Part shown: in pieces, positions 8,090 through 58,639 of the stretch
Position numbering within the stretch: the stretch's first letter is position 1
Layout of the letters: each line of letters opens with the position of its first letter
The notes under the pieces: generated by a model
Databases searched by the model: none
What the model saw: only the letters and a program-made list of their open reading frames with translations
Told to the model about the DNA's origin: nothing
Assembly: GCA_020057555.1 (NCBI GenBank)
Contig: JAGVFR010000026.1
Location: 22,631-86,630, forward strand
Length of the DNA stretch: 64,000 bases
From: a bacterium
GTDB taxonomy: Bacteria > Patescibacteriota > Patescibacteriia > UBA9934 > GWF2-40-263
Direction of reading: 5' to 3'
Position numbers and translations under genes: made by a program

Positions 8090-9181
8090 ATGACACAAAT
8101 TACAGAATTCAATTATCATCTTCCAAGAGAGTTAATCGCACAATGCTCTGTCCAGCCTCGCGACCAATCACGGCTCATGGTTTTGGATAAACAAACAGGG
8201 AAGTTGAACCACAAGAAATTTTTTGAGATTGTTGATGAGTTGAAAACAGGTGATGTACTTGTATTTAATGATACAAAAGTTTTTAGAGCCCGGCTCAAGA
8301 CGCAAAATGGAATTGAGATATTTTTGTTGCGTGCGCGGGAAGACGATATTTGGGAAGTTTTGGCGCGTCCGGGAAAGAAGTTGCAGGTTGGACAAACACT
8401 TTGTATTGAACATGAAACAGAAAAACTTTGTGGAGAAGTGATGTCAAAACAATCAGACGGAACTGTTTTGATAAAATTTGATCGCGTACCAAATGACGTA
8501 ATCGCGTTTGCAAATATATACGGAGAGATTCCTATTCCTCCTTATGTGAAAAATATACCGGAGCGATTGGAAGATTATCAAACGATCTATGCAAAAGAGA
8601 CAGGTTCTGTTGCGGCGCCAACAGCCGGTTTTCACTTCACAGAAGATCTTATGGAAGAATTAAAATCAAAAGGCGTGCAATTCGAATTTGTAACACTTCA
8701 CGTTGGAATTGGAACTTTTCGTCCAATGAAAACAGAAACGATCGAGGAACATGAAATGCACAGCGAGTTTGTTTCTGTCTCAAAAGAGACAGCAGATCGG
8801 ATCAATCAAGCAAAAAAAGATGAGCGACGCGTGATCGCTGTTGGAACGACAACAGTTCGTACACTTGAAGGAGTCGCAAATTATCCCCTGAGCGAAGGTC
8901 AATTAGGCCTTCGACAGGCTCAGGCAATAATTGACCGAAGTCGAATGGGTAATTTTTATCTTCCAGATGGTTTTACAGGCGACGTTAATCTATTTATCAA
9001 ACCAGGCTTTGATTTCAAAATAATTGATGGGCTTATAACGAATTTTCATTTACCAAAATCAACATTACTGGTTTTGGTTTCGGCTTTTGCTGGAAGAGAA
9101 AATGTTTTGCGCGCGTATGAAGAAGCAGTTGCGCAACAGTATCGTTTTTTTTCCTTTGGCGACGCGATGTTTATTGCTTGA
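8090..9181 (+). CDS. queA: S-adenosylmethionine:tRNA ribosyltransferase-isomerase
   Basis: 363 aa with QueA blocks TAGFHFT, TLHVGIGTFRP, AVGTTTVRTLE, ITNFHLPKSTLL and YRFFSFGDAMFI. Carries an in-frame repeat-element insertion at about 8885-8950. Confidence 0.9.
   Translation: MTQITEFNYHLPRELIAQCSVQPRDQSRLMVLDKQTGKLNHKKFFEIVDELKTGDVLVFNDTKVFRARLKTQNGIEIFLLRAREDDIWEVLARPGKKLQVGQTLCIEHETEKLCGEVMSKQSDGTVLIKFDRVPNDVIAFANIYGEIPIPPYVKNIPERLEDYQTIYAKETGSVAAPTAGFHFTEDLMEELKSKGVQFEFVTLHVGIGTFRPMKTETIEEHEMHSEFVSVSKETADRINQAKKDERRVIAVGTTTVRTLEGVANYPLSEGQLGLRQAQAIIDRSRMGNFYLPDGFTGDVNLFIKPGFDFKIIDGLITNFHLPKSTLLVLVSAFAGRENVLRAYEEAVAQQYRFFSFGDAMFIA
8885..8950 (+). repeat. MITE-like palindromic element inserted in-frame in queA (copy A)
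   Basis: Arms CCTGAGCGAAGG / CCTTCGACAGGCTCAGG. The 26-mer GCCTTCGACAGGCTCAGGCAATAATT (8907-8932) is identical to 57312-57337 and 25/26 identical to 34816-34841. Confidence 0.7.
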
Positions 9182-20568: not shown

Positions 20569-21594
20569 ATGCTTCGAATAATTGGGATAGTTATAGGAAT
20601 CGGAATTTTGGTCGGCATTGTGCTTTCTGGTTCTTATGTTTGGGATTCATACTTTCTATCTCCTGATCGCAACGCAAGTGAAGTGAGGATTGAAATTCCA
20701 GATGGTTCATCTTTAGATTCAATTTCTAAACTTTTGAAAGAGCAAGACGTTATTTCAAGTCGTTTCTTTTTTAAGATTTACAGCAAGTTTACGAACGCCC
20801 AATCTTCACTTCAAGCAGGAGTATTTGTGTTAAAGCCAAAAATGTCGTTTAGAACTATTGTGGCCGCACTCACCAATGCTCAAGCGCAAGAAATTCAAAT
20901 TACGATTCCAGAAGGATTTACACTTCAACAAACAGGCCAAGAGATTGCGAAAAATTTTTTACAAATTTCAGTAGCGGATTGGGATTCAGTTAATGGTTCT
21001 CCAAGTGATTTTACTGAACAGCAAGATATTCTTTCTGGAATTCCATCAGGTCAAGGTCTTGAAGGATATCTTTTTCCAGACACATATCGTTTTCGAAAAG
21101 ATGCTGATGCAAAAACAATTGCCGAAACAATGATCATAACTCTAAAGCGACGGTTGGCTGAAAATAATATCATTGTTCCAGATCATCTGATGATGCAAAA
21201 TGGGATGACATTTCATCAAGTGTTAACGCTAGCTTCGATTGTTGAGCGAGAAGTTAGATCAAAAGAAGACATGGCGCATGTTGCGGGAATTTTTCTAACT
21301 AGACTTAAGATTGGCATGGCACTTCAAGCAGACTCAACAGTAAATTTTGTAACTGGAAAACAAGAAGCCTCTGTTTCAATTACTGACAGTAAAGTTGATT
21401 CACCATATAACACGTACAAGTTTCTCGGCCTTCCGCCAGGACCAATCAGTAATCCTGGTATGAACGCGATTCAGGCAGTGCTCAATCCTGTTGCATCAAA
21501 TGACTTGTATTTTTTAACAACTCCAGCAGGACAGGTTATTTACTCAAAAACGTTTGATGATCATGTTGCAAATAAATATAAATATTTGAAATAA
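20569..21594 (+). CDS. mltG: endolytic murein transglycosylase MltG (YceG-like)
   Basis: N-terminal TM and YceG blocks LEGYLFPDTY, LASIVEREV and SPYNTYKFLGLPPGPISNPG. Confidence 0.85.
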   Translation: MLRIIGIVIGIGILVGIVLSGSYVWDSYFLSPDRNASEVRIEIPDGSSLDSISKLLKEQDVISSRFFFKIYSKFTNAQSSLQAGVFVLKPKMSFRTIVAALTNAQAQEIQITIPEGFTLQQTGQEIAKNFLQISVADWDSVNGSPSDFTEQQDILSGIPSGQGLEGYLFPDTYRFRKDADAKTIAETMIITLKRRLAENNIIVPDHLMMQNGMTFHQVLTLASIVEREVRSKEDMAHVAGIFLTRLKIGMALQADSTVNFVTGKQEASVSITDSKVDSPYNTYKFLGLPPGPISNPGMNAIQAVLNPVASNDLYFLTTPAGQVIYSKTFDDHVANKYKYLK

Positions 21595-34780: not shown

Positions 34781-34815
34781 GTTTCCCTCCGAAGATAAAC
34801 ATATCATTGTAGTTT

Positions 34816-34841
34816 GCCTTCGACAAGCTCAGGCAATAATT
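34816..34841 (+). repeat. MITE-like element right arm (copy C)
   Basis: GCCTTCGACAAGCTCAGGCAATAATT, 25/26 identical to copies at 8907-8932 and 57312-57337. Lies in the 74-bp divergent region. Confidence 0.6.
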
Positions 34842-36252: not shown

Positions 36253-37139
36253 AAACAAGTTGGTTTCGAAATTGTGCGGAGTTAATTATCTTGATCGCTA
36301 TCATTGCCACGGTTTACACACAACGCGTGGGGATTTCGCAGTGGTTTCGAGAAATGATGGAGCCGTCTGTGCCAGAGGCAGTGGAGTTTGAAAAAATAAC
36401 AGAGGAAAAGGAAGAAGGTAGTCGCGGGCTTCAGCCCGCGCAAGCGCCAGTCATCCCGAGTGCCGTCGATGGATCTGAAGAAAAAATATTGCCTGAACCT
36501 GTTGAAGGCAGTATAGATGATGTAGTTGTCACTTCGACAAGCTCAGTGGATAAAATTTTGCCTGTTGAAATCAATCTCGCTGTTCCTTTTACATCTCAAG
36601 CTCCGCACGCGAATTGGGATTTACCATATAAAGAAACATGCGAAGAAGCATCGCTCTATATGGTTGATGTTTATTATAAAGGAGTAAAAGCGGGGAAGAT
36701 TGCGGCTGATACTGCGGACGAGGAGATTAAAAAAATTATAGAATTTGAAAAAGAAATTTTTGGATATTATGAAGACACAACCGCAGAACAAGTTGGAATT
36801 CTTGCGGAAATGATGTATGGTCACGAAAAAATTGAACTGATCGAAAATCCAACTGTTGAACAAATTAAAAAACATGTTGCTGAAGGACATCCGGTTATTG
36901 TTCCTGCGGCAGGACGAGAACTTGGTAATCCGAATTTCACAGCGCCTGGTCCGATATATCACATGTTAGTGATTCGCGGATACACAAAAGATGGTAAATT
37001 CATCACAAATGATCCGGGCACAAAAAACGGCGAAGCATATGTTTACGATTTTGACACAGTTATGAACGCGATGCATGATTGGAACAATGGTGACGAGATC
37101 ACGGAAGGAAAAAAGGTAGTACTAATTGTTTATCCATAA
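36249..37139 (+). CDS. C39-like peptidase domain protein, membrane-anchored
   Basis: N-terminal TM and a low-complexity linker. VPFTSQAPHANWDLPYKETCEEASLYM matches the Peptidase_C39_2-type N-terminus. Confidence 0.6.
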   Translation: MKTSWFRNCAELIILIAIIATVYTQRVGISQWFREMMEPSVPEAVEFEKITEEKEEGSRGLQPAQAPVIPSAVDGSEEKILPEPVEGSIDDVVVTSTSSVDKILPVEINLAVPFTSQAPHANWDLPYKETCEEASLYMVDVYYKGVKAGKIAADTADEEIKKIIEFEKEIFGYYEDTTAEQVGILAEMMYGHEKIELIENPTVEQIKKHVAEGHPVIVPAAGRELGNPNFTAPGPIYHMLVIRGYTKDGKFITNDPGTKNGEAYVYDFDTVMNAMHDWNNGDEITEGKKVVLIVYP

Positions 37140-53174: not shown

Positions 53175-54341
53175 ATGGAAAAGGAGGTTAACTTTTTACA
53201 CGATTCTCATTCAGCAATTTTTGCGATTGATGCTTCTTCGGCTAATAAAGATAAACGAACAGGAGTTGAGAATTACGCGTTTCATTTGATTGAAGCAATG
53301 AAAAAAGAACCGCTCAAGGTGGGAGAGCGTGTTGTTTTATTTTCACCAACTCCTTTGCAAGGAACACTTGCACAAATGCCAAGCAGTTGGGAATCACGTG
53401 TTCTTGGTTGGAAATTGAAGCGCGGATGGATGCAATTGCGTGTGAGCTGGGAATTGCTACGACGTCGGTCGTCAGTTTTTTTTGTACCGGCGCAAGGAAT
53501 TCCAAATTTTTCATTTCGTGTTTTAATTGTCACAACGATTCATGACATTGCTTTTCGTCGTATTGGAAATTTATATAGTTCGTCAGTTCGAAAACGTGTC
53601 GCGTCTGCAACATCACGCGCAATAAAAAAAGCAGAGCATCTTATTAGTGTTTCTCAATTTACAAAAGAAGAATTGAAAACCGTTTACAATGTTTCTGAAA
53701 CAAAAATTACAGTCACTCCACTTTCTGCGGCAACAGAAATATACAAACGTTTAGACGCGAAAGCGATCGAATTGGTTTTACAAAAATACCGTTTGGGTCA
53801 TAATTTTTTCTTGTTTGTCGGACGATTGGAAAAAAAGAAAAGCGTTTCAACAATTATTCGAGCGTTTGAGTTGTTCAAACAGAATCGCGGAATGGGAGAT
53901 CCCTTTGAGCTTGTGCTTGTTGGTGAGCAAGGATTTGGGTATGAGGAAATTAGAACGTGCGTTGAACGTTCACCACAACGAACACTGATTCGCGAAGTCG
54001 GTTATCTTTCTGATCAAGAAGTTTCTGCACTGATGAATGTCTCGACCGCATTATTGTTTCCATCATTATATGAAGGATTTGGAATTCCAAACCTTGAAGC
54101 AATGGCTTGCGGAACAGTTTTGTTAACATCGGATATTCCAGTTCATCACGAAGTCGCAGGCCCTGCCGCGATTTATATTTCACCCAAAGACCCAGAGTTG
54201 TGGGCAAAGCAAATGACTCGACTGGTAGCTGATCCACTGCTCCGCGAACGATTGATTGAAAATGGAAGTATTCGTGTTGCAGAATTTTCTTGGGAGAAAA
54301 CCGCAAAACAGACATGGGAAGTTCTGCGTAGTTTGGTATAA
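53175..54341 (+). CDS. glycosyltransferase family 4 (GT-B)
   Basis: Start refined to ATG 53175. C-terminal EGFGIPNLEAMACG motif. Confidence 0.8.
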   Translation: MEKEVNFLHDSHSAIFAIDASSANKDKRTGVENYAFHLIEAMKKEPLKVGERVVLFSPTPLQGTLAQMPSSWESRVLGWKLKRGWMQLRVSWELLRRRSSVFFVPAQGIPNFSFRVLIVTTIHDIAFRRIGNLYSSSVRKRVASATSRAIKKAEHLISVSQFTKEELKTVYNVSETKITVTPLSAATEIYKRLDAKAIELVLQKYRLGHNFFLFVGRLEKKKSVSTIIRAFELFKQNRGMGDPFELVLVGEQGFGYEEIRTCVERSPQRTLIREVGYLSDQEVSALMNVSTALLFPSLYEGFGIPNLEAMACGTVLLTSDIPVHHEVAGPAAIYISPKDPELWAKQMTRLVADPLLRERLIENGSIRVAEFSWEKTAKQTWEVLRSLV

Positions 54342-54371
54342 TCACTCCATTACTCCATCACTTTTTAATCT

Positions 54372-55148
54372 ATGGACGAATTAATGAACGAACTCAAGCA
54401 TTTAGGTTTATCTGACAAAGAGGCGTCTGTTTATCTTGCATCGCTTGAACTTGGCCCAGCTTCTGTGCAAGACATATCGCACAAAGCAAAAATAAATCGC
54501 GCGACAACATACGTGATGATAGAGGTATTGTCAGGACGTGGACTTCTTTCAACTTTTGTAAAAGGGAAGAAACGTTTTTACGCGCCAGAAAGTCCTGATC
54601 GATTGATTTCCATTTTACGCGTGCAACAGAAAGAACTTGAAGAAAAAGAAAAAGAGTTTGCAAAGTCGCTTCCATTGTTGCTCGCGCTTTATAATGCTGA
54701 AGGAGCAAAGCCGCAGATTCGATATTTGGAAGGGCCAGAAGGATTGCGATCTTTGCGTCAGACTTTTGAAAAATTGAATGGGGAATTTGTTCAGATTCTT
54801 TCGATTGACGATGCGTTGGCAACAAGAGAACTAATGGAAGAAAGTCCGAAACATGTTTCCGCTCTTCGACAAGCAAGCACTTCTTATAGAATTTTGGCAG
54901 TTTTAGATAAGAAGGAACCAAAAGATATTCCGGAGATGGGAACAGGCGAAATTAGAATGGTTCCGTTTTTGGAGTTTCCAATGCACGGTGAGATTACCGT
55001 GCGAGGAAATCATGTGTTTTTGTTTTCATATCGTTCAGCAGTTTTGGCTGTTGTGATTGTAAGTAAAGAGGTCGCTGATGCGGCTCGGGCATTGTTTGAG
55101 CTTGCTTGGAAAGGAGCAAAAGATTTTCAATCAAGAATGGATAAATAA
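54372..55148 (+). CDS. TrmB-family transcriptional regulator
   Basis: N-terminal LGLSDKEASVYLASLELGPASVQDISHKAKINRATTYVMIEVL wHTH, typical of TrmB. Confidence 0.7.
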   Translation: MDELMNELKHLGLSDKEASVYLASLELGPASVQDISHKAKINRATTYVMIEVLSGRGLLSTFVKGKKRFYAPESPDRLISILRVQQKELEEKEKEFAKSLPLLLALYNAEGAKPQIRYLEGPEGLRSLRQTFEKLNGEFVQILSIDDALATRELMEESPKHVSALRQASTSYRILAVLDKKEPKDIPEMGTGEIRMVPFLEFPMHGEITVRGNHVFLFSYRSAVLAVVIVSKEVADAARALFELAWKGAKDFQSRMDK

Positions 55149-55526
55149 CAAAATAGGACCGAGTGTGGTCCGTTGTTGAGAGAGATAAGATATGAGAGAA
55201 GCGCAACAATGTGCGCGAGAGCTTTTTTATGTGAAGCTAGAAAAGGAGCTACGATCCGAGAGCACAATGCATGTGCGGTTGGAGAAACGCCGGATTGAAC
55301 CGACGCGGGTTGAGTTCGTTTGCGTACGTTTTGAGAACCATTCCTGCTTCCATTTTATTACCTCGGACTTTGCCGGCTTGGCCTGCCGGCCAGGCATCTC
55401 ATCCAAAACTTTTAGGATGAGAATATACTCTAGCAATTTTTGTTGATTTTGTCAAGCCAATTGGACTGACTAAGAAGAATTTGGAGAATTTGTTGATATT
55501 TATTAACATATTTTGTCCTGTGACCA

Positions 55527-55555
55527 TTGACAAGCAAAAGATTATTTGATAGTTT
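55527..55555 (+). promoter_or_regulatory. candidate promoter of a small RNA
   Basis: TTGACA (55527-55532), 17 nt, TAGTTT (55550-55555). Confidence 0.35.
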
Positions 55556-55561
55556 GGTCGG

Positions 55562-55707
55562 TTCACTCAAGAAGTGGGCAATGAGGAAGAGAGGACATAA
55601 AACCGACCAACTCCCAATGGCCGGTTTTATCTTAGTCGAAACATGGTACATGGGTTCATGTGTGTGATAAACAAAAAGACGTCCTGTAAACAGGGCGTCT
55701 TTTTTTT
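55562..55707 (+). ncRNA. candidate ~145-nt small RNA, class unknown
   Basis: Lies between the candidate promoter and the terminator at 55678-55707. 5' helix GGTCGGTT / AACCGACC. No ORF. Confidence 0.3.
55673..55707. terminator. bidirectional intrinsic terminator
   Basis: AAAAA-GACGTCCTG-TAAA-CAGGGCGTC-TTTTTTTT (9-bp stem with one G-U). Confidence 0.65.
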
Positions 55708-55717
55708 GGGAAAGAGC

Positions 55718-55837
55718 TATAGCCATCACATTATAAAATGGGACTTTAGACGACTTACCTGTGGATGGGATGCGAAGGACAAGCAGACCGCCACAGGAAA
55801 GGATGGATAAATCCTATTTCATAATGTGATGGCTATA
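55718..55837. repeat. 120-nt hairpin/MITE-like element with 17-bp perfect terminal inverted repeat
   Basis: TATAGCCATCACATTAT (55718-55734) / ATAATGTGATGGCTATA (55821-55837). Inner helices CCTGTGG/CCACAGG (55758-55764/55791-55797) and AGGAT/ATCCT. Confidence 0.6.
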
Positions 55838-55861
55838 CAGTCTTGCGACCGCGCGGTCGTT

Positions 55862-55957
55862 GGACATTACATTATGATTCCGTACTTATAAAGATGAAAA
55901 ACAAGCAGGTTGCCATTTTTAATTTTTTATGGAGTATGGAACCATAATGTAATGTCC
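55862..55957. repeat. 96-nt hairpin/MITE-like element with 20-bp terminal inverted repeat (1 mismatch)
   Basis: GGACATTACATTATGATTCC (55862-55881) / GGAACCATAATGTAATGTCC (55938-55957). Shares CAT(C/T)ACATTAT with the neighbouring element. Confidence 0.6.
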
Positions 55958-56186
55958 ACATTCCTCTCACAGGTCTTCATTGCAAGCATGGAGCAATGGA
56001 AAACTGTGATTGGAGGGCGACGTTGGAAAGATATCCTTCGTCGCCCAAGAGTTTGCCTTCTCGGCTGGAGGCTCTGCTTCCTCTTGGCTCACCGTTTTAG
56101 GAAGGTGACTCCTTTTTGTCGCGTGTTTCAGATTGTAGTGGAATGTGTTAACTCACTTTGCCCTCCTAAATGTTTGGTTTTTTTGG

Positions 56187-57176
56187 CTACGAGAGCATGG
56201 CCTGGAGCTTGAGCTCGGCCATACGGATCACGCCAGGAACCGTCCAGTTCTTGATCGCACGGACGTCCGCGGCGGTCAGACCAGAGTTGCGAATTTTGAT
56301 AGCCGCGCGACCGAGTTGACGGTACTCGTCCTTGCTCACGCCCGGGACGATCTTGCCCTGAACGCGGCGTGGCGGACGAACCAGACCTAGACCGCATGCG
56401 AGCAAACTTCCGTCGCGCAGGGTTTCGACGTGCGAGCGAGTTTCGGCGATTCTTGCGTCAACGCGTTCTTCGGCCTCGCGCTGAAGCCGTGCTTCCTCGG
56501 TCGCTCTCTCGTCCGCGAACATATTCTCGATTGCCGCCATTGCCTCGGGCACGGTCTGCGATCCGAGCGGCAGAACGGTCTGTGCGCACTTGGGGCAGAA
56601 CGACTTCTGAAGGAGACCATGAACGGTCACCTCCTCGAGCCTCTTGACCCCGATAGCGCGCATGATTGTGCTGAACACGACCGCGACCCTTGCCTCGTTC
56701 ATCGGAACGAGTCGCAGACACTGTCCGAACTTTCCCTGACAGACCACGTGGTCCACGCCGTCCTTCGCAATGACGAGTCCCGGGGTGAACCTGACCTCGG
56801 GCTCGAGAACGGGCTCGGGCGCTGGAGCGGGTGCGGCGGGAGCCTTCTTGGTCTCGGCCTTGTGGACCTTGACCTTCGCCGGCTTCGGTGTCTCGACCTT
56901 CGGAGCCGGGGACGGGTTGGCCTCGGTCTTGGGCGAGACGATCTCCTTGGCCATGATTTCGACAGCCTCGATCGAGGAGCAATCCCTCCAGTTCTGGCCC
57001 GTGACCTCGATGATGTGCATGGCGCGACCGAGCTCGACGTGGGATGCGAGGAAGTTGATCGAGCCCTCGAAGTGACGCTCAACCACACGGCCGAGCTCTT
57101 CGAGTTCGCCAGGGAGACCGGGGCGGGAGTCGTCCTGCGGGATGATCTGAAGTCCGGGAGCCATCTGCGCGACCAT
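56187..57176 (-). CDS. hypothetical protein, very GC-rich orphan (Pro/Ala-rich linker)
   Basis: ORF 56187..57197. Start refined to ATG 57176 behind GGAGG. Strong G/C preference at third codon positions. Linker PSPAPKVETPKPAKVKVHKAETKKAPAAPAPAPEP. No family recognised. Confidence 0.6.
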   Translation of the reverse strand: MVAQMAPGLQIIPQDDSRPGLPGELEELGRVVERHFEGSINFLASHVELGRAMHIIEVTGQNWRDCSSIEAVEIMAKEIVSPKTEANPSPAPKVETPKPAKVKVHKAETKKAPAAPAPAPEPVLEPEVRFTPGLVIAKDGVDHVVCQGKFGQCLRLVPMNEARVAVVFSTIMRAIGVKRLEEVTVHGLLQKSFCPKCAQTVLPLGSQTVPEAMAAIENMFADERATEEARLQREAEERVDARIAETRSHVETLRDGSLLACGLGLVRPPRRVQGKIVPGVSKDEYRQLGRAAIKIRNSGLTAADVRAIKNWTVPGVIRMAELKLQAMLS

Positions 57177-57289
57177 GCGTAACCTCCAAAAAAGCATGTG
57201 TCCTGGGTCCCGAACCTACACCACGTAGGAACGGATCAATTTATAGAACCTATCGGTCCTACGACCTTAGCAGTTTGGAAATTGTTATA

Positions 57290-57338
57290 CCTTGAGCGAA
57301 GGAAAATTACTGCCTTCGACAGGCTCAGGCAATAATTT
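57290..57338 (+). repeat. MITE-like palindromic element (copy E) between the two GC-rich genes
   Basis: CCTTGAGCGAAGG...GCCTTCGACAGGCTCAGGCAATAATT. The 26-mer is identical to the copy inside queA. Confidence 0.7.
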
Positions 57339-57463
57339 GCCGGAGTCGGAGGGTTAGATTCAATTTCTAAACTATTAAGATCGTTCCGGGTGGCGTGTTC
57401 AGGGAAAGAAATCCCTTTACACACCACCCGGAAGATATAGAGCGGAGAGAGCGGAAAGAACTA

Positions 57464-58003
57464 CTAGCCGTTGGCGACCTTGCGGGCCTTGCCCTTGACG
57501 GTCACGATCGGCGTCTCGACGGCGGCGGGAGCCTCGGCGGGCGTGGAGACCGGAGCCGGTGTCACGGCGACCGCGGCCTTGAGCTCGGCCACAACCTGCG
57601 GGCCGACCTGCTCACCGATCGGGGTCGAGGCGAGAGCAGGCTTGGCGGGTGCGGAAGCGGCGGGCTTGGGCGTGAGCTTCGGCGCGGGCTTCTCGGACTT
57701 GGACTTCGGGAAGTAGGACATCGTGTTGACCATGTCCTTGAAGTCCAGGAGCGGTGCGAGGGCCGAGTTCTGCCCCATGCCGTGCTCGATGTTGTCGATG
57801 GCCTTCGTGAGAAGGGCCTTTCCGACGTCTTCGATGCAGCGCATGGTGTAGTACTCGGTGCCGACGTAGTCGTCGCGCTTCTCCGGGTCGAGGCCGAGCA
57901 CCTCGCACGCCTTCGCGAAGATCTTGTCGCGCAACTCCCTTTCGAAGATGCGTCCGTAGAGCGGGGAGGGATCGGTCGAGGGGGCCTGGAAGCTGGTCTT
58001 CAT
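57464..58003 (-). CDS. hypothetical protein, very GC-rich orphan (Pro/Ala-rich C-terminal half)
   Basis: 179-codon ORF behind AAGGAGA. Codon third positions are almost all G/C near the 3' end. 45/60 G+C hand-counted at 57481-57540. No family recognised. Confidence 0.6.
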   Translation of the reverse strand: MKTSFQAPSTDPSPLYGRIFERELRDKIFAKACEVLGLDPEKRDDYVGTEYYTMRCIEDVGKALLTKAIDNIEHGMGQNSALAPLLDFKDMVNTMSYFPKSKSEKPAPKLTPKPAASAPAKPALASTPIGEQVGPQVVAELKAAVAVTPAPVSTPAEAPAAVETPIVTVKGKARKVANG

Positions 58004-58464
58004 TGAAATTCTCCTTTTCGATGGCCTGCCTCCAGCCGAACCTGACCCCTGTGGTCAAATCCGCTTTCAGCTCGATGACGGCAAATGTTGTCACCATTGA
58101 GCTGAATCGGATTTTCCCAGAAATACGGAGGTAAAGTGTGACCCATTGACCTGCCCGAAGGCTGGTGTAGATCGTGAGTCTCTTGCGTATGAATTCAGTC
58201 AGCCTAGGCCGAATGAACACATTTGAGACTCTCTGCCAATGTCGTCTTGTAAGACTCGATTGGACAGCTTTACTCTCTCCTCCGTGTTTCTGGGTCGGTT
58301 TTTAACAAAAAACCGGTTGTCGTATATATCTGATCTTTTTGGCAAGAGTCAGACGTACACAACAACCGGTTCTTTTATTCAAAGAATGGCTATTGACTAC
58401 CTTTATACCGTGGGTAGTGCACGGACTCTCTCCCAAAAGTCCTATTTGTAAGAATCATCTTAAC
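58004..58464 (-). promoter_or_regulatory. ~460-nt structured 5' leader of the GC-rich gene pair
   Basis: 16-bp helix 58279-58294 / 58116-58131 (one mismatch) encloses 147 nt. Adjacent hairpin 58057-58114. Internal C(UUCG)G-type loop. Upstream terminator-like hairpin 58311-58371. Confidence 0.4.
58304..58371 (-). terminator. terminator/attenuator-like long hairpin inside the leader
   Basis: AACCGGTTGT (58362-58371, read on the minus strand) pairs with ACAACCGGTT (58311-58320), followed on the minus strand by TTTTTGTT. Confidence 0.45.
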
Positions 58465-58470
58465 GGTCAT

Positions 58471-58499
58471 ACTATATCATATTCTGTCAAAACTGTCAA
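58471..58499 (-). promoter_or_regulatory. sigma70-like promoter for the island transcript
   Basis: Minus strand TTGACA (58499-58494), 17 nt, TATAGT (58476-58471). Confidence 0.5.
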
Positions 58500-58573
58500 G
58501 ACCCGTATGTCGGTGAGGTTAGAATTTTAGCTAAAATTAGACAAAAGCTACTGTCAGGATTTTTTAGACTTAT

Positions 58574-58618
58574 CACTCCGTCACTTCTTCACTCCGTCAC
58601 TTCTTCACTCCGTCACTT
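58574..58618 (+). repeat. 16-bp tandem repeat, 2.8 copies
   Basis: CACTCCGTCACTTCTT x2 plus CACTCCGTCACTT, ending 21 nt before the holB start. Confidence 0.85.
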
Positions 58619-58639
58619 TGTGTTACACTAAAATCTGTT

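Follow-up and report, generated by a model that had tools for sequence, protein, structure and literature searches.

Atypical GC content is routinely taken as a sign of horizontal transfer, and leaders with tandem aptamers are known, the glycine riboswitch being an example; to our knowledge few regulatory RNAs have been described in the candidate phyla radiation. Here we discuss a locus of that radiation, a segment of about 3.5 kb ("the island", 55149-58639) in a 64,000-nucleotide stretch of contig JAGVFR010000026.1 (assembly GCA_020057555.1) that we call the window, and to which all coordinates refer. The island lies between holB and trmB and carries two GC-rich open reading frames (ORFs), orfA and orfB, and their leader, all on the minus strand. 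It resembles an acquired genomic island in being a deviant block between housekeeping genes, with orphan genes and a content that varies between lineages. However the locus has no integrase, tRNA or direct repeats, only its ORFs are deviant, there are no donor homologues, and it occupies the same site across a class-level clade, is present in all close relatives and has diverged together with its flanks. The reading that we favour, with moderate confidence, is that of an ancestral operon gated by a leader RNA and encoding fast-evolving, probably nucleic-acid-binding orphan proteins, with synonymous sites under a GC-favouring force.

The two genes are as follows.

57464-58003, minus strand: orfA, 179 amino acids (aa), isoelectric point (pI) 8.5; N-terminal four-helix bundle (residues about 22-95) and disordered Pro/Ala-rich tail ending KGKARKVANG.
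56187-57176, minus strand: orfB, 329 aa, pI 8.5; conserved N-terminal domain (DDSRPGLPG...), variable Pro/Ala/Lys linker, coiled segment and conserved C-terminal helical domain.

The window has a mean GC content of 41%, and across the whole 64 kb the only 1-kb windows with GC above 0.48 are those starting at 55501-57751. The GC content of orfA is 0.663 (0.61, 0.47 and 0.91 at the first, second and third codon positions, GC1 to GC3) and that of orfB 0.628 (0.68, 0.44 and 0.77), while trmB, holB, the BNR gene and the glycosyltransferase gene have GC of 0.40-0.41 and GC3 of 0.28-0.33. Codon use in the island ORFs is a wholesale reversal of that of the host across synonymous families, with AAA:AAG at 1:35 against 90:24 in host genes, TTT:TTC at 0:12 against 67:10 and ATT:ATC at 2:23 against 77:16. 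The initial annotation, made from the sequence by eye, had called the ORFs far from host composition on hand counts of 45/60 and 25/60 G+C; both counts are reproduced exactly, and the GC3 values over the full coding sequences, set against about 0.3 in the neighbours, bear the claim out. It was also right that non-coding DNA, strongly organised, makes up over half of the segment, but not that this DNA is AT-rich, as its GC of 0.43-0.46 is host-like or slightly higher.

The locus is conserved clade-wide in Uhrbacteria. Exact-match and homology look-ups found orfA and orfB in the same order between holB and trmB in the Candidatus Uhrbacteria metagenome-assembled genome GCA_016188475.1 and in several ENA, JGI and Logan assemblies, and the synteny is identical in the related loci L001, L002, L003 and L105. 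For a survey of the clade the TrmB protein was scanned against one genome per species, which gave 80 loci, assigned to Patescibacteria by synteny and mostly labelled Uhrbacteria. In most Uhrbacteria for which both trmB and holB are visible the gap between them is 2-7 kb long with a GC peak of 0.65-0.80, and in these gaps there are between one and three ORFs, on the strand of the island genes, whose GC3 is 0.7-1.0; in distant Patescibacteria and a few nearer relatives (L034 for example) the gap is 0.07-0.9 kb and has no insert. In 12 other holB-trmB gaps there are ORFs that BLAST connects with orfB, other gaps hold further small families, and L017, a fairly close relative, has no orfB. Homologues are few. 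Among 5.8 billion proteins there are 5 and 6 clusters for the two ORFs, the 6 being those of orfA and all of Uhrbacteria type, and the orfB family has 14 representatives among 1.84 billion proteins. Every homologue with visible context is at the same holB-trmB locus, in Uhrbacteria or Parcubacteria, and no relatives of orfA or orfB were found in viral contigs, phage records or plasmid records.

With regard to divergence, Nei-Gojobori estimates of non-synonymous (dN) and synonymous (dS) change were made for close relatives, in which the flanking proteins are 91-98% identical and orfA and orfB only about 70%. For the flanks dS is 0.31-0.70, dN 0.01-0.05 and dN/dS 0.02-0.11, and for the island dS is 0.31-0.98, dN 0.15-0.35 and dN/dS 0.21-0.84, so that amino-acid change in the island proteins is 6-10 times faster than in their neighbours. 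Over this clade and a second one (L011-L014 and L048) the island dN/dS is 0.2-1.1. As the island dS is comparable to that of the flanks, the island has co-diverged vertically with them. Island dN scales with flank dN across both clades, the second behaving like the first, and this graded scaling speaks for a vertical divergence that is fast and steady, and against replacement in episodes.

These data bear directly on the view of the initial annotation that the island is an established acquisition, perhaps by transfer from a high-GC host or partner. A recent or established acquisition from such an organism, for example an actinobacterial host, would account for codon use that resembles that of a high-GC organism and for GC3 that is currently decaying (see below). 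However there is no homologue outside the Uhrbacteria/Parcubacteria locus in either the 5.8 billion or the 1.84 billion proteins, the synteny and the GC-rich ORFs are clade-wide, island dS is comparable to flank dS and the non-coding parts are host-like. Nor is there an integrase, tRNA or target duplication: ARAGORN finds no tRNA or tmRNA in the window, there is no integrase or transposase Pfam domain among the neighbours in syntenic loci of relatives, and the repeats found are only hairpins or the miniature inverted-repeat transposable element (MITE)-like host element described below. The absence of integrase, transposase and tRNA from the flanks had been correctly noted before. We regard acquisition from a high-GC organism as very improbable.

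The composition of the ORFs is held apart from that of the host. Over 23 loci island GC3 is 0.72-0.99 and TrmB GC3 0.26-0.80 (r = 0.29), with a mean excess of +0.39 for the island. The non-ORF DNA of the gaps tracks host GC (r = 0.84) with an offset of +0.03, the offset for the ORFs being +0.17, and as the ORFs are raised in GC while the DNA between them is host-like, the force that raises GC has the reading frames as its target rather than the region as a whole. Third-position singleton changes, polarised among four close genomes, point the same way. GC-to-AT changes per GC site are 0.198 for the island ORFs against 0.341 for host genes (p = 3e-4) and AT-to-GC changes per AT site 0.290 against 0.163 (p = 0.017), which implies an equilibrium GC3 of 0.59 for the island ORFs and 0.32 for host genes; the latter agrees with the observed value of about 0.3 and so validates the method. 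In the second clade TrmB dS is 1.1-1.7 and thus saturated, yet island GC3 is still 0.77-0.89, with dN of 0.35-1.27. Composition is thus better conserved than protein sequence. For the GC3 excess, restricted as it is to ORFs, the best explanation is a force favouring GC that acts on the coding mRNA or on the choice of codons, and not foreign origin or regional mutation bias. That selection, rather than conversion or import, maintains it we would put at about an even chance.

A recombination hot spot with GC-biased gene conversion, in which frequent allele exchange under diversifying selection would raise both GC and amino-acid divergence, would fit the very high dN, the dN/dS of 0.2-1.1 and the lowered GC-to-AT and raised AT-to-GC rates relative to host genes. 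However the rise in GC ends at the ORF boundaries, with unconstrained spacers a few nucleotides (nt) away tracking the host, and as conversion tracts would not respect reading frames we consider this explanation decidedly unlikely. The GC3 excess ascribed to biased conversion in bacteria is a few percent, compared with +0.4 to +0.6 here.

The leader has the following parts.

58471-58499, minus strand: promoter P1, sigma-70-type, TTGACA-17-TATAGT with TG extension.
58300-58465, minus strand: leader element 1, attenuator-like, with purine tract GGGAGAGAG, small hairpins and a long-stem intrinsic terminator.
58108-58298, minus strand: four-helix RNA motif of about 185 nt, with a long closing helix, optional P2 hairpin, P3 and P4.
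58004-58065, minus strand: proximal 5' untranslated region (UTR) of orfA, with Shine-Dalgarno (SD) sequence AAGGAGA at 58016-58010; invariant in the window, L001 and L002 and conserved only within the close clade.

The promoter had been recognised in the initial annotation (58499-58471) and matches the consensus at 11 of 12 positions; its -35 region TCTTGACA is invariant in 15 loci from different Uhrbacteria. The structured leader of about 460 nt proposed there is also supported, since the RNA of 58470-58004 folds with a z score of -9.0 against dinucleotide shuffles, but the discrete conserved RNA motif and the conserved terminator within it had been missed. In close relatives (flank dS 0.3-0.7) the leader is 93-99% identical, broken by variable inserts, and its conservation exceeds that of the synonymous sites of the neighbouring genes. 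Element 1 carries an invariant GGGGAGAGAG tract and adjoins the first motif copy on its upstream side in at least 15 loci, and its terminator (arms 58375-58349 and 58333-58307, U-run 58306-58300) has nine pairs with compensatory changes in the hairpin.

In the case of the four-helix motif, the 5' strand of the closing helix has an invariant GGAGGAGAGAG and its 3' strand has CCUCC, P3 has the form CAAAUG...ACUNGG-loop-CUNACU...CAUAC and P4 the form ACACC...GGUCACUG. The GGAGG-CCUCC pairing of the closing helix does not involve the SD sequence of orfA itself. The window copy scores 154 bits (E = 9e-37) with covariance model R1 and is the sole copy in the 64 kb with filters off, and nhmmer finds about 37 copies in the fetched loci. 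RNAalifold gave 46 consensus pairs for a 36-copy alignment, 36 of them with compensatory changes. Of the cells in the model alignment 92.5% are paired, compared with 30-42% after sliding of the partners, and 39 of the 46 pairs have changes on both sides, values reached by none of 500 shuffles. There are 92 covariance-model matches on the sense strand, 45 in TrmB loci and 47 in metagenome contigs, the latter coming from contigs retrieved by a degenerate pattern and many being redundant between assemblies. Reverse-strand scores are 23-33 bits and sense scores 76-174 bits, save for one sequence at 52 bits (in two assemblies), and in 45 of 51 sequences one particular pair of the motif is a G-U pair, so that it is the sense RNA that is functional.

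Every motif match with visible context is between holB and trmB on the strand of the ORFs, downstream of the conserved promoter, and for most of them the start of a GC-rich ORF follows after 17-900 nt. The number of copies at a locus is one to three, and in at least 11 loci a long copy is followed directly by a short copy without P2. The motif was not found in the short gaps, 0.5-0.9 kb long, of distant Patescibacteria or in viral, phage and plasmid collections, the one viral pattern match (L086) not being confirmed by the covariance model. There is no match in Rfam 15 at gathering thresholds in the window or in 10 related loci, and permissive Rfam scans gave only chance-level microRNA or small RNA (sRNA) matches. 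We found nothing relevant on GC-rich loci, RNA motifs or structured RNAs in the literature on Uhrbacteria, Patescibacteria and the candidate phyla radiation. The four-helix RNA is a new structured RNA, exclusively linked to the holB-trmB locus. We have very little doubt that the locus as a whole is vertically inherited and ancestral in Uhrbacteria and that its leader RNA is genuine.

Two other identities were considered for the leader and rejected. Its blocks are not divergent forms of RNase P RNA, tmRNA, signal recognition particle RNA or 6S RNA, since a locus may have as many as three of them, they resemble no Rfam family and they lack a tRNA-like end. Neither does the invariant CAAAUG of the motif start a conserved small ORF, as the length of such an ORF would range from 2 codons to over 30 and its AUG is base-paired.

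Codon structure and conservation indicate that the island ORFs are translated genes. They have GC1 greater than GC2 and GC3 far above it, dN/dS is below 1 (0.47-0.83 for orfA and 0.21-0.32 for orfB, with an excess of third-position differences in orfB), and both have the SD sites given in the initial annotation (AAGGAGA, and GGAGG at 57187-57183), properly spaced from the two ATGs. The AlphaFold model of orfA is confident at residues 21-90 (predicted local distance difference test 86-94) and below 50 in the tail; that of orfB is poor except at residues 250-329. Four cysteines of orfB are invariant (C146, C153, C194 and C197), which suggests a putative zinc ribbon. The orfB linker varies in length between relatives, one of which has no linker at all, and distant relatives have strongly basic Gly/Lys/Arg tails and in one case a duplicated cysteine module. 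From the basic character, the candidate zinc ribbon and the basic tails, the proteins probably bind nucleic acids. The Pro/Ala-rich linkers had been seen as reminiscent of high-GC Gram-positive proteins, but Pro/Ala/Lys linkers are what GC pressure yields in weakly constrained segments and are not a taxonomic signature.

Two plus-strand shadow ORFs, 56430-57182 (250 aa) and 57395-58006 (203 aa), overlap orfB and orfA; GC1 below GC2 and incomplete conservation in relatives indicate that they are probably by-products of high GC. Such long overlapping ORFs on both strands, and the folding of orfA RNA (z = -3.0), would suit a different explanation, that the GC-rich stretches are non-coding structured RNA in which ORFs arise as by-products of a low frequency of stop codons, or that they come from a chimeric assembly. 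However the strong three-base periodicity with GC1 above GC2, the SD sites, the invariant cysteines, the third-position substitution excess in orfB, the confident helical domain and the z score of -0.15 for orfB RNA all speak for coding, and the same island junctions are present in at least five independent assemblies (NCBI, ENA, JGI and Logan), in agreement with the earlier opinion that the segment is not chimeric. We find this explanation scarcely credible in either form.

Taken together, the data are consistent with a self-contained module of two proteins and RNA, as had been proposed, and we suggest that it would work as follows. P1 would start a compound leader, with element 1 (about 165 nt, including the purine tract) ending in the intrinsic terminator, and by default transcription would stop at this conserved terminator to give a short RNA. 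The purine tract may pair with the pyrimidine-rich ascending arm of the terminator, a pairing on which covariation is uninformative as both tracts are invariant. Read-through past the terminator would extend the transcript into one to three copies of the four-helix RNA, often in tandem, and then one to three orphan ORFs, here orfA and orfB. The invariant junction nucleotides of the four-helix RNA and its tandem occurrence suggest that it could form a pocket to which a ligand or a protein binds, perhaps the proteins that the locus itself encodes. The ORFs would provide small, basic, partly disordered proteins, those of the orfB family with a zinc ribbon, and their third positions would be held near 85% G+C independently of host bias, in the ORFs only. 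We think it somewhat more likely than not that the leader is a cis-acting attenuator or a switch that responds to a ligand or a protein.

Several observations weigh against this reading. The conserved terminator is upstream and not downstream of the four-helix motif and the distance from motif to ORF is variable, so that the motif lacks a classical riboswitch expression platform. The low-GC clade of the window is off equilibrium, with 76 GC-to-AT against 20 AT-to-GC changes (p = 7e-9): GC3 is eroding there and its maintenance is incomplete, yet the target level is well above that of the host. The orfB mRNA is no more folded than shuffles (z = -0.15, compared with -3.0 for orfA), which gives no support for selection on RNA folding beyond composition. 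A simple explanation by tRNA adaptation does not fit, because the G/C-ending codons that the ORFs use are rare ones in a low-GC host but common ones in a high-GC host. Finally, a function for the proteins has no support from homology in family, PDB or Foldseek searches. With orfA, orfB and as many as 10 ORFs of other loci as queries, no match in Pfam, PHROGs, NCBIfam or PADLOC rose above noise (the 10 ORFs taken from other gaps have no Pfam domain). PDB sequence-profile searches with the island proteins gave no match and neither model has a significant Foldseek match in PDB, so that the initial statement that neither protein belongs to a recognised family stands.

The erosion of GC3 in the window's clade also fits a cassette hot spot, in which ORFs would be periodically replaced on a stable scaffold from a GC-rich mobile pool and then drift to host composition, the conserved motif and the 3' element that follows orfB (below) being cassette boundaries or homology arms. 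On this explanation only the ORFs would be GC-rich and the scaffold host-like, as is observed, and ORF families and the number of motif-plus-ORF units do differ between loci, gene content differing even in the fairly close L017 with its missing orfB. However there is no recombinase or integrase at the locus, and no copy of ORF or motif was found in viral, phage and plasmid collections. Moreover island dS is comparable to flank dS and dN scales smoothly and not bimodally, the implied equilibrium GC3 is well above that of the host and GC3 persists at saturating divergence, and a strand-specific motif with G-U pairs suits an RNA and not a recombination site. We therefore consider a cassette hot spot unlikely.

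There are other non-coding elements in and around the operon, as follows.

57384-57433, minus strand: hairpin after the orfA stop codon, 22-nt arms with 86% complementarity, 6-nt loop, without U-run.
57285-57345: MITE-like host repeat, inserted between orfA and orfB.
55950-56120, minus strand: 3' element after orfB, about 170 nt, a GGGCGACG...CGUCGCCC hairpin followed by a nested CACAG/CAUUGC hairpin.
55718-55837 and 55861-55958: two long palindromic hairpins, from inverted-repeat analysis.
55597-55707, minus strand: operon-closing terminators, one bidirectional at 55670-55707 and a second hairpin with U-run at 55597-55630, both conserved in relatives.
55150-55455, minus strand: candidate sRNA, RNA-2, with promoter TTGACA-17-TAGAGT at 55455-55427, a transcript of about 270 nt and terminator GGACCACACUCGGUCC with U-run at 55171-55156.

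The initial annotation had located the hairpin after orfA, giving it a 12-bp stem that is in fact longer, and its bidirectional terminator is found as described. The candidate sRNA that it reported is also present, but it was called convergent, and with its minus-strand promoter it runs in the same direction as the island genes, trmB alone being convergent with it. RNA-2 folds with a z score of -4.2; its conservation does not extend beyond the close clade, its support from covariation is weak (8 of 61 pairs in 5 sequences) and it has no Rfam match. The 3' element is nearly invariant in the close clade and has a run of about 60 nt of invariant columns common to four loci, and nhmmer finds it again directly after the corresponding ORF in L015 (2620-2705), L040 (5885-6007), L104 (3643-3704) and L117 (6377-6493). 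It may stabilise the 3' end or represent another RNA family. The sequence 55861-55958 is a near-perfect palindrome of 98 nt that L001, L002 and L003 do not have at this position; it appears to be a small hairpin element that was inserted recently.

The repeat between the genes matches 8881-8951 inside queA (8090-9181), as had been pointed out, with 83% identity over 72 nt and an identical core of 25 nt. The same element is in the leader of the relative L001 at a different position and is therefore a secondary insertion. The remaining variable pieces are small palindromic inserts and this MITE-like repeat, at positions that differ between relatives. The MITE-like repeat is about 70 nt long with core ATTATTGCCTGAGCCTGTCGAAGGC and has partial copies at 20713-20735, 34815-34841 and 36483-36513. 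Its copy inside queA leaves the reading frame intact, and queA exceeds the Pfam profile in length by about 40 aa.

We have two observations on the surroundings and labelling of these loci. In close relatives a 118-aa 23S_rRNA_IVP/bAvd-like gene is present between trmB and the GT4 glycosyltransferase gene (L001 11751-12107, L002 11262-11618); it is absent from the window, where trmB and the glycosyltransferase gene are 30 nt apart (54341-54372). Many records named "uncultured Gammaproteobacteria bacterium" (L008, L010, L014, L015, L016 and others) carry Uhrbacteria-type trmB-island-holB synteny and the RNA motif, and these labels appear to be wrong.

With regard to significance, we have here syntenic genes that stay at about 85% GC3 in hosts with GC3 of 0.26-0.80, while their proteins evolve almost freely and the intervening DNA is host-like. 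This is a clean natural case of gene-specific, long-term control of composition that current amelioration models do not predict. It comes with a well-supported new class of structured RNA and a linked attenuator-like element in the candidate phyla radiation, all at one conserved locus whose products probably have a central place in the biology of Uhrbacteria. A bolder reading, which we offer tentatively and think rather unlikely, is that the locus is an unrecognised RNA-protein system universal in Uhrbacteria, with the RNA and attenuator controlling arms-race proteins and the mRNAs directly selected for synonymous G/C. The reasons could then be escape from an AU-directed ribonuclease or toxin, long-lived messages or a special translational state, and composition, not protein sequence, would be the most conserved property of these genes.

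It remains to compare the locus with other described systems. It resembles those of IscB and TnpB with their omega RNAs, and of IS110 with its bridge RNA, in having a structured RNA of about 180-200 nt immediately upstream of a gene for a protein of 300-550 aa with a zinc-binding motif. However there is no RuvC, HNH, DEDD or transposase domain in Pfam searches of orfA, orfB and 10 ORFs from other loci, no match to HEARO or any other Rfam family, no element ends, and the locus is single and fixed; the Foldseek match to IS621 is insignificant (E = 9.2). Fast protein divergence in a genome of the candidate phyla radiation and an Avd-like gene nearby in relatives are reminiscent of diversity-generating retroelements, in contrast to which the divergence is spread over whole proteins. 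A diversity-generating retroelement was rejected, there being no pair of template and variable repeats and no second copy of the GC-rich segments in the window, and there is no reverse-transcriptase domain in the Pfam list for the neighbours in a syntenic relative.

The repeated units of structured element and ORF, variable in number and with ORF composition unlike that of the host, recall integron cassette arrays. However there is no intI at the locus, and the island element is upstream (5') of the ORF, while attC is at the 3' end of the cassette. The element also differs from attC in its size of about 185 nt, its four helices and its strongly conserved sequence, and in being a strand-specific RNA with G-U pairs rather than a folded single-stranded DNA site.

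There is also a likeness in form to orphan riboswitch candidates and attenuators. The island motif has no Rfam family, the terminator precedes it, its distance from the start codon ranges from 17 to 900 nt, the orphan genes downstream give no clue to a ligand and it is at a single locus per genome, and in these respects it is unlike them. It is like them in being a covarying multi-helix RNA with invariant junction nucleotides, in the 5' UTR and on the gene strand, often as two abutting copies, with a conserved intrinsic terminator in the same leader. All of the components are outside described families. Promoter, leader RNA, ORFs and terminator make up an ordinary architecture, but the compound leader and the long-term, host-independent and gene-specific composition are out of the ordinary.

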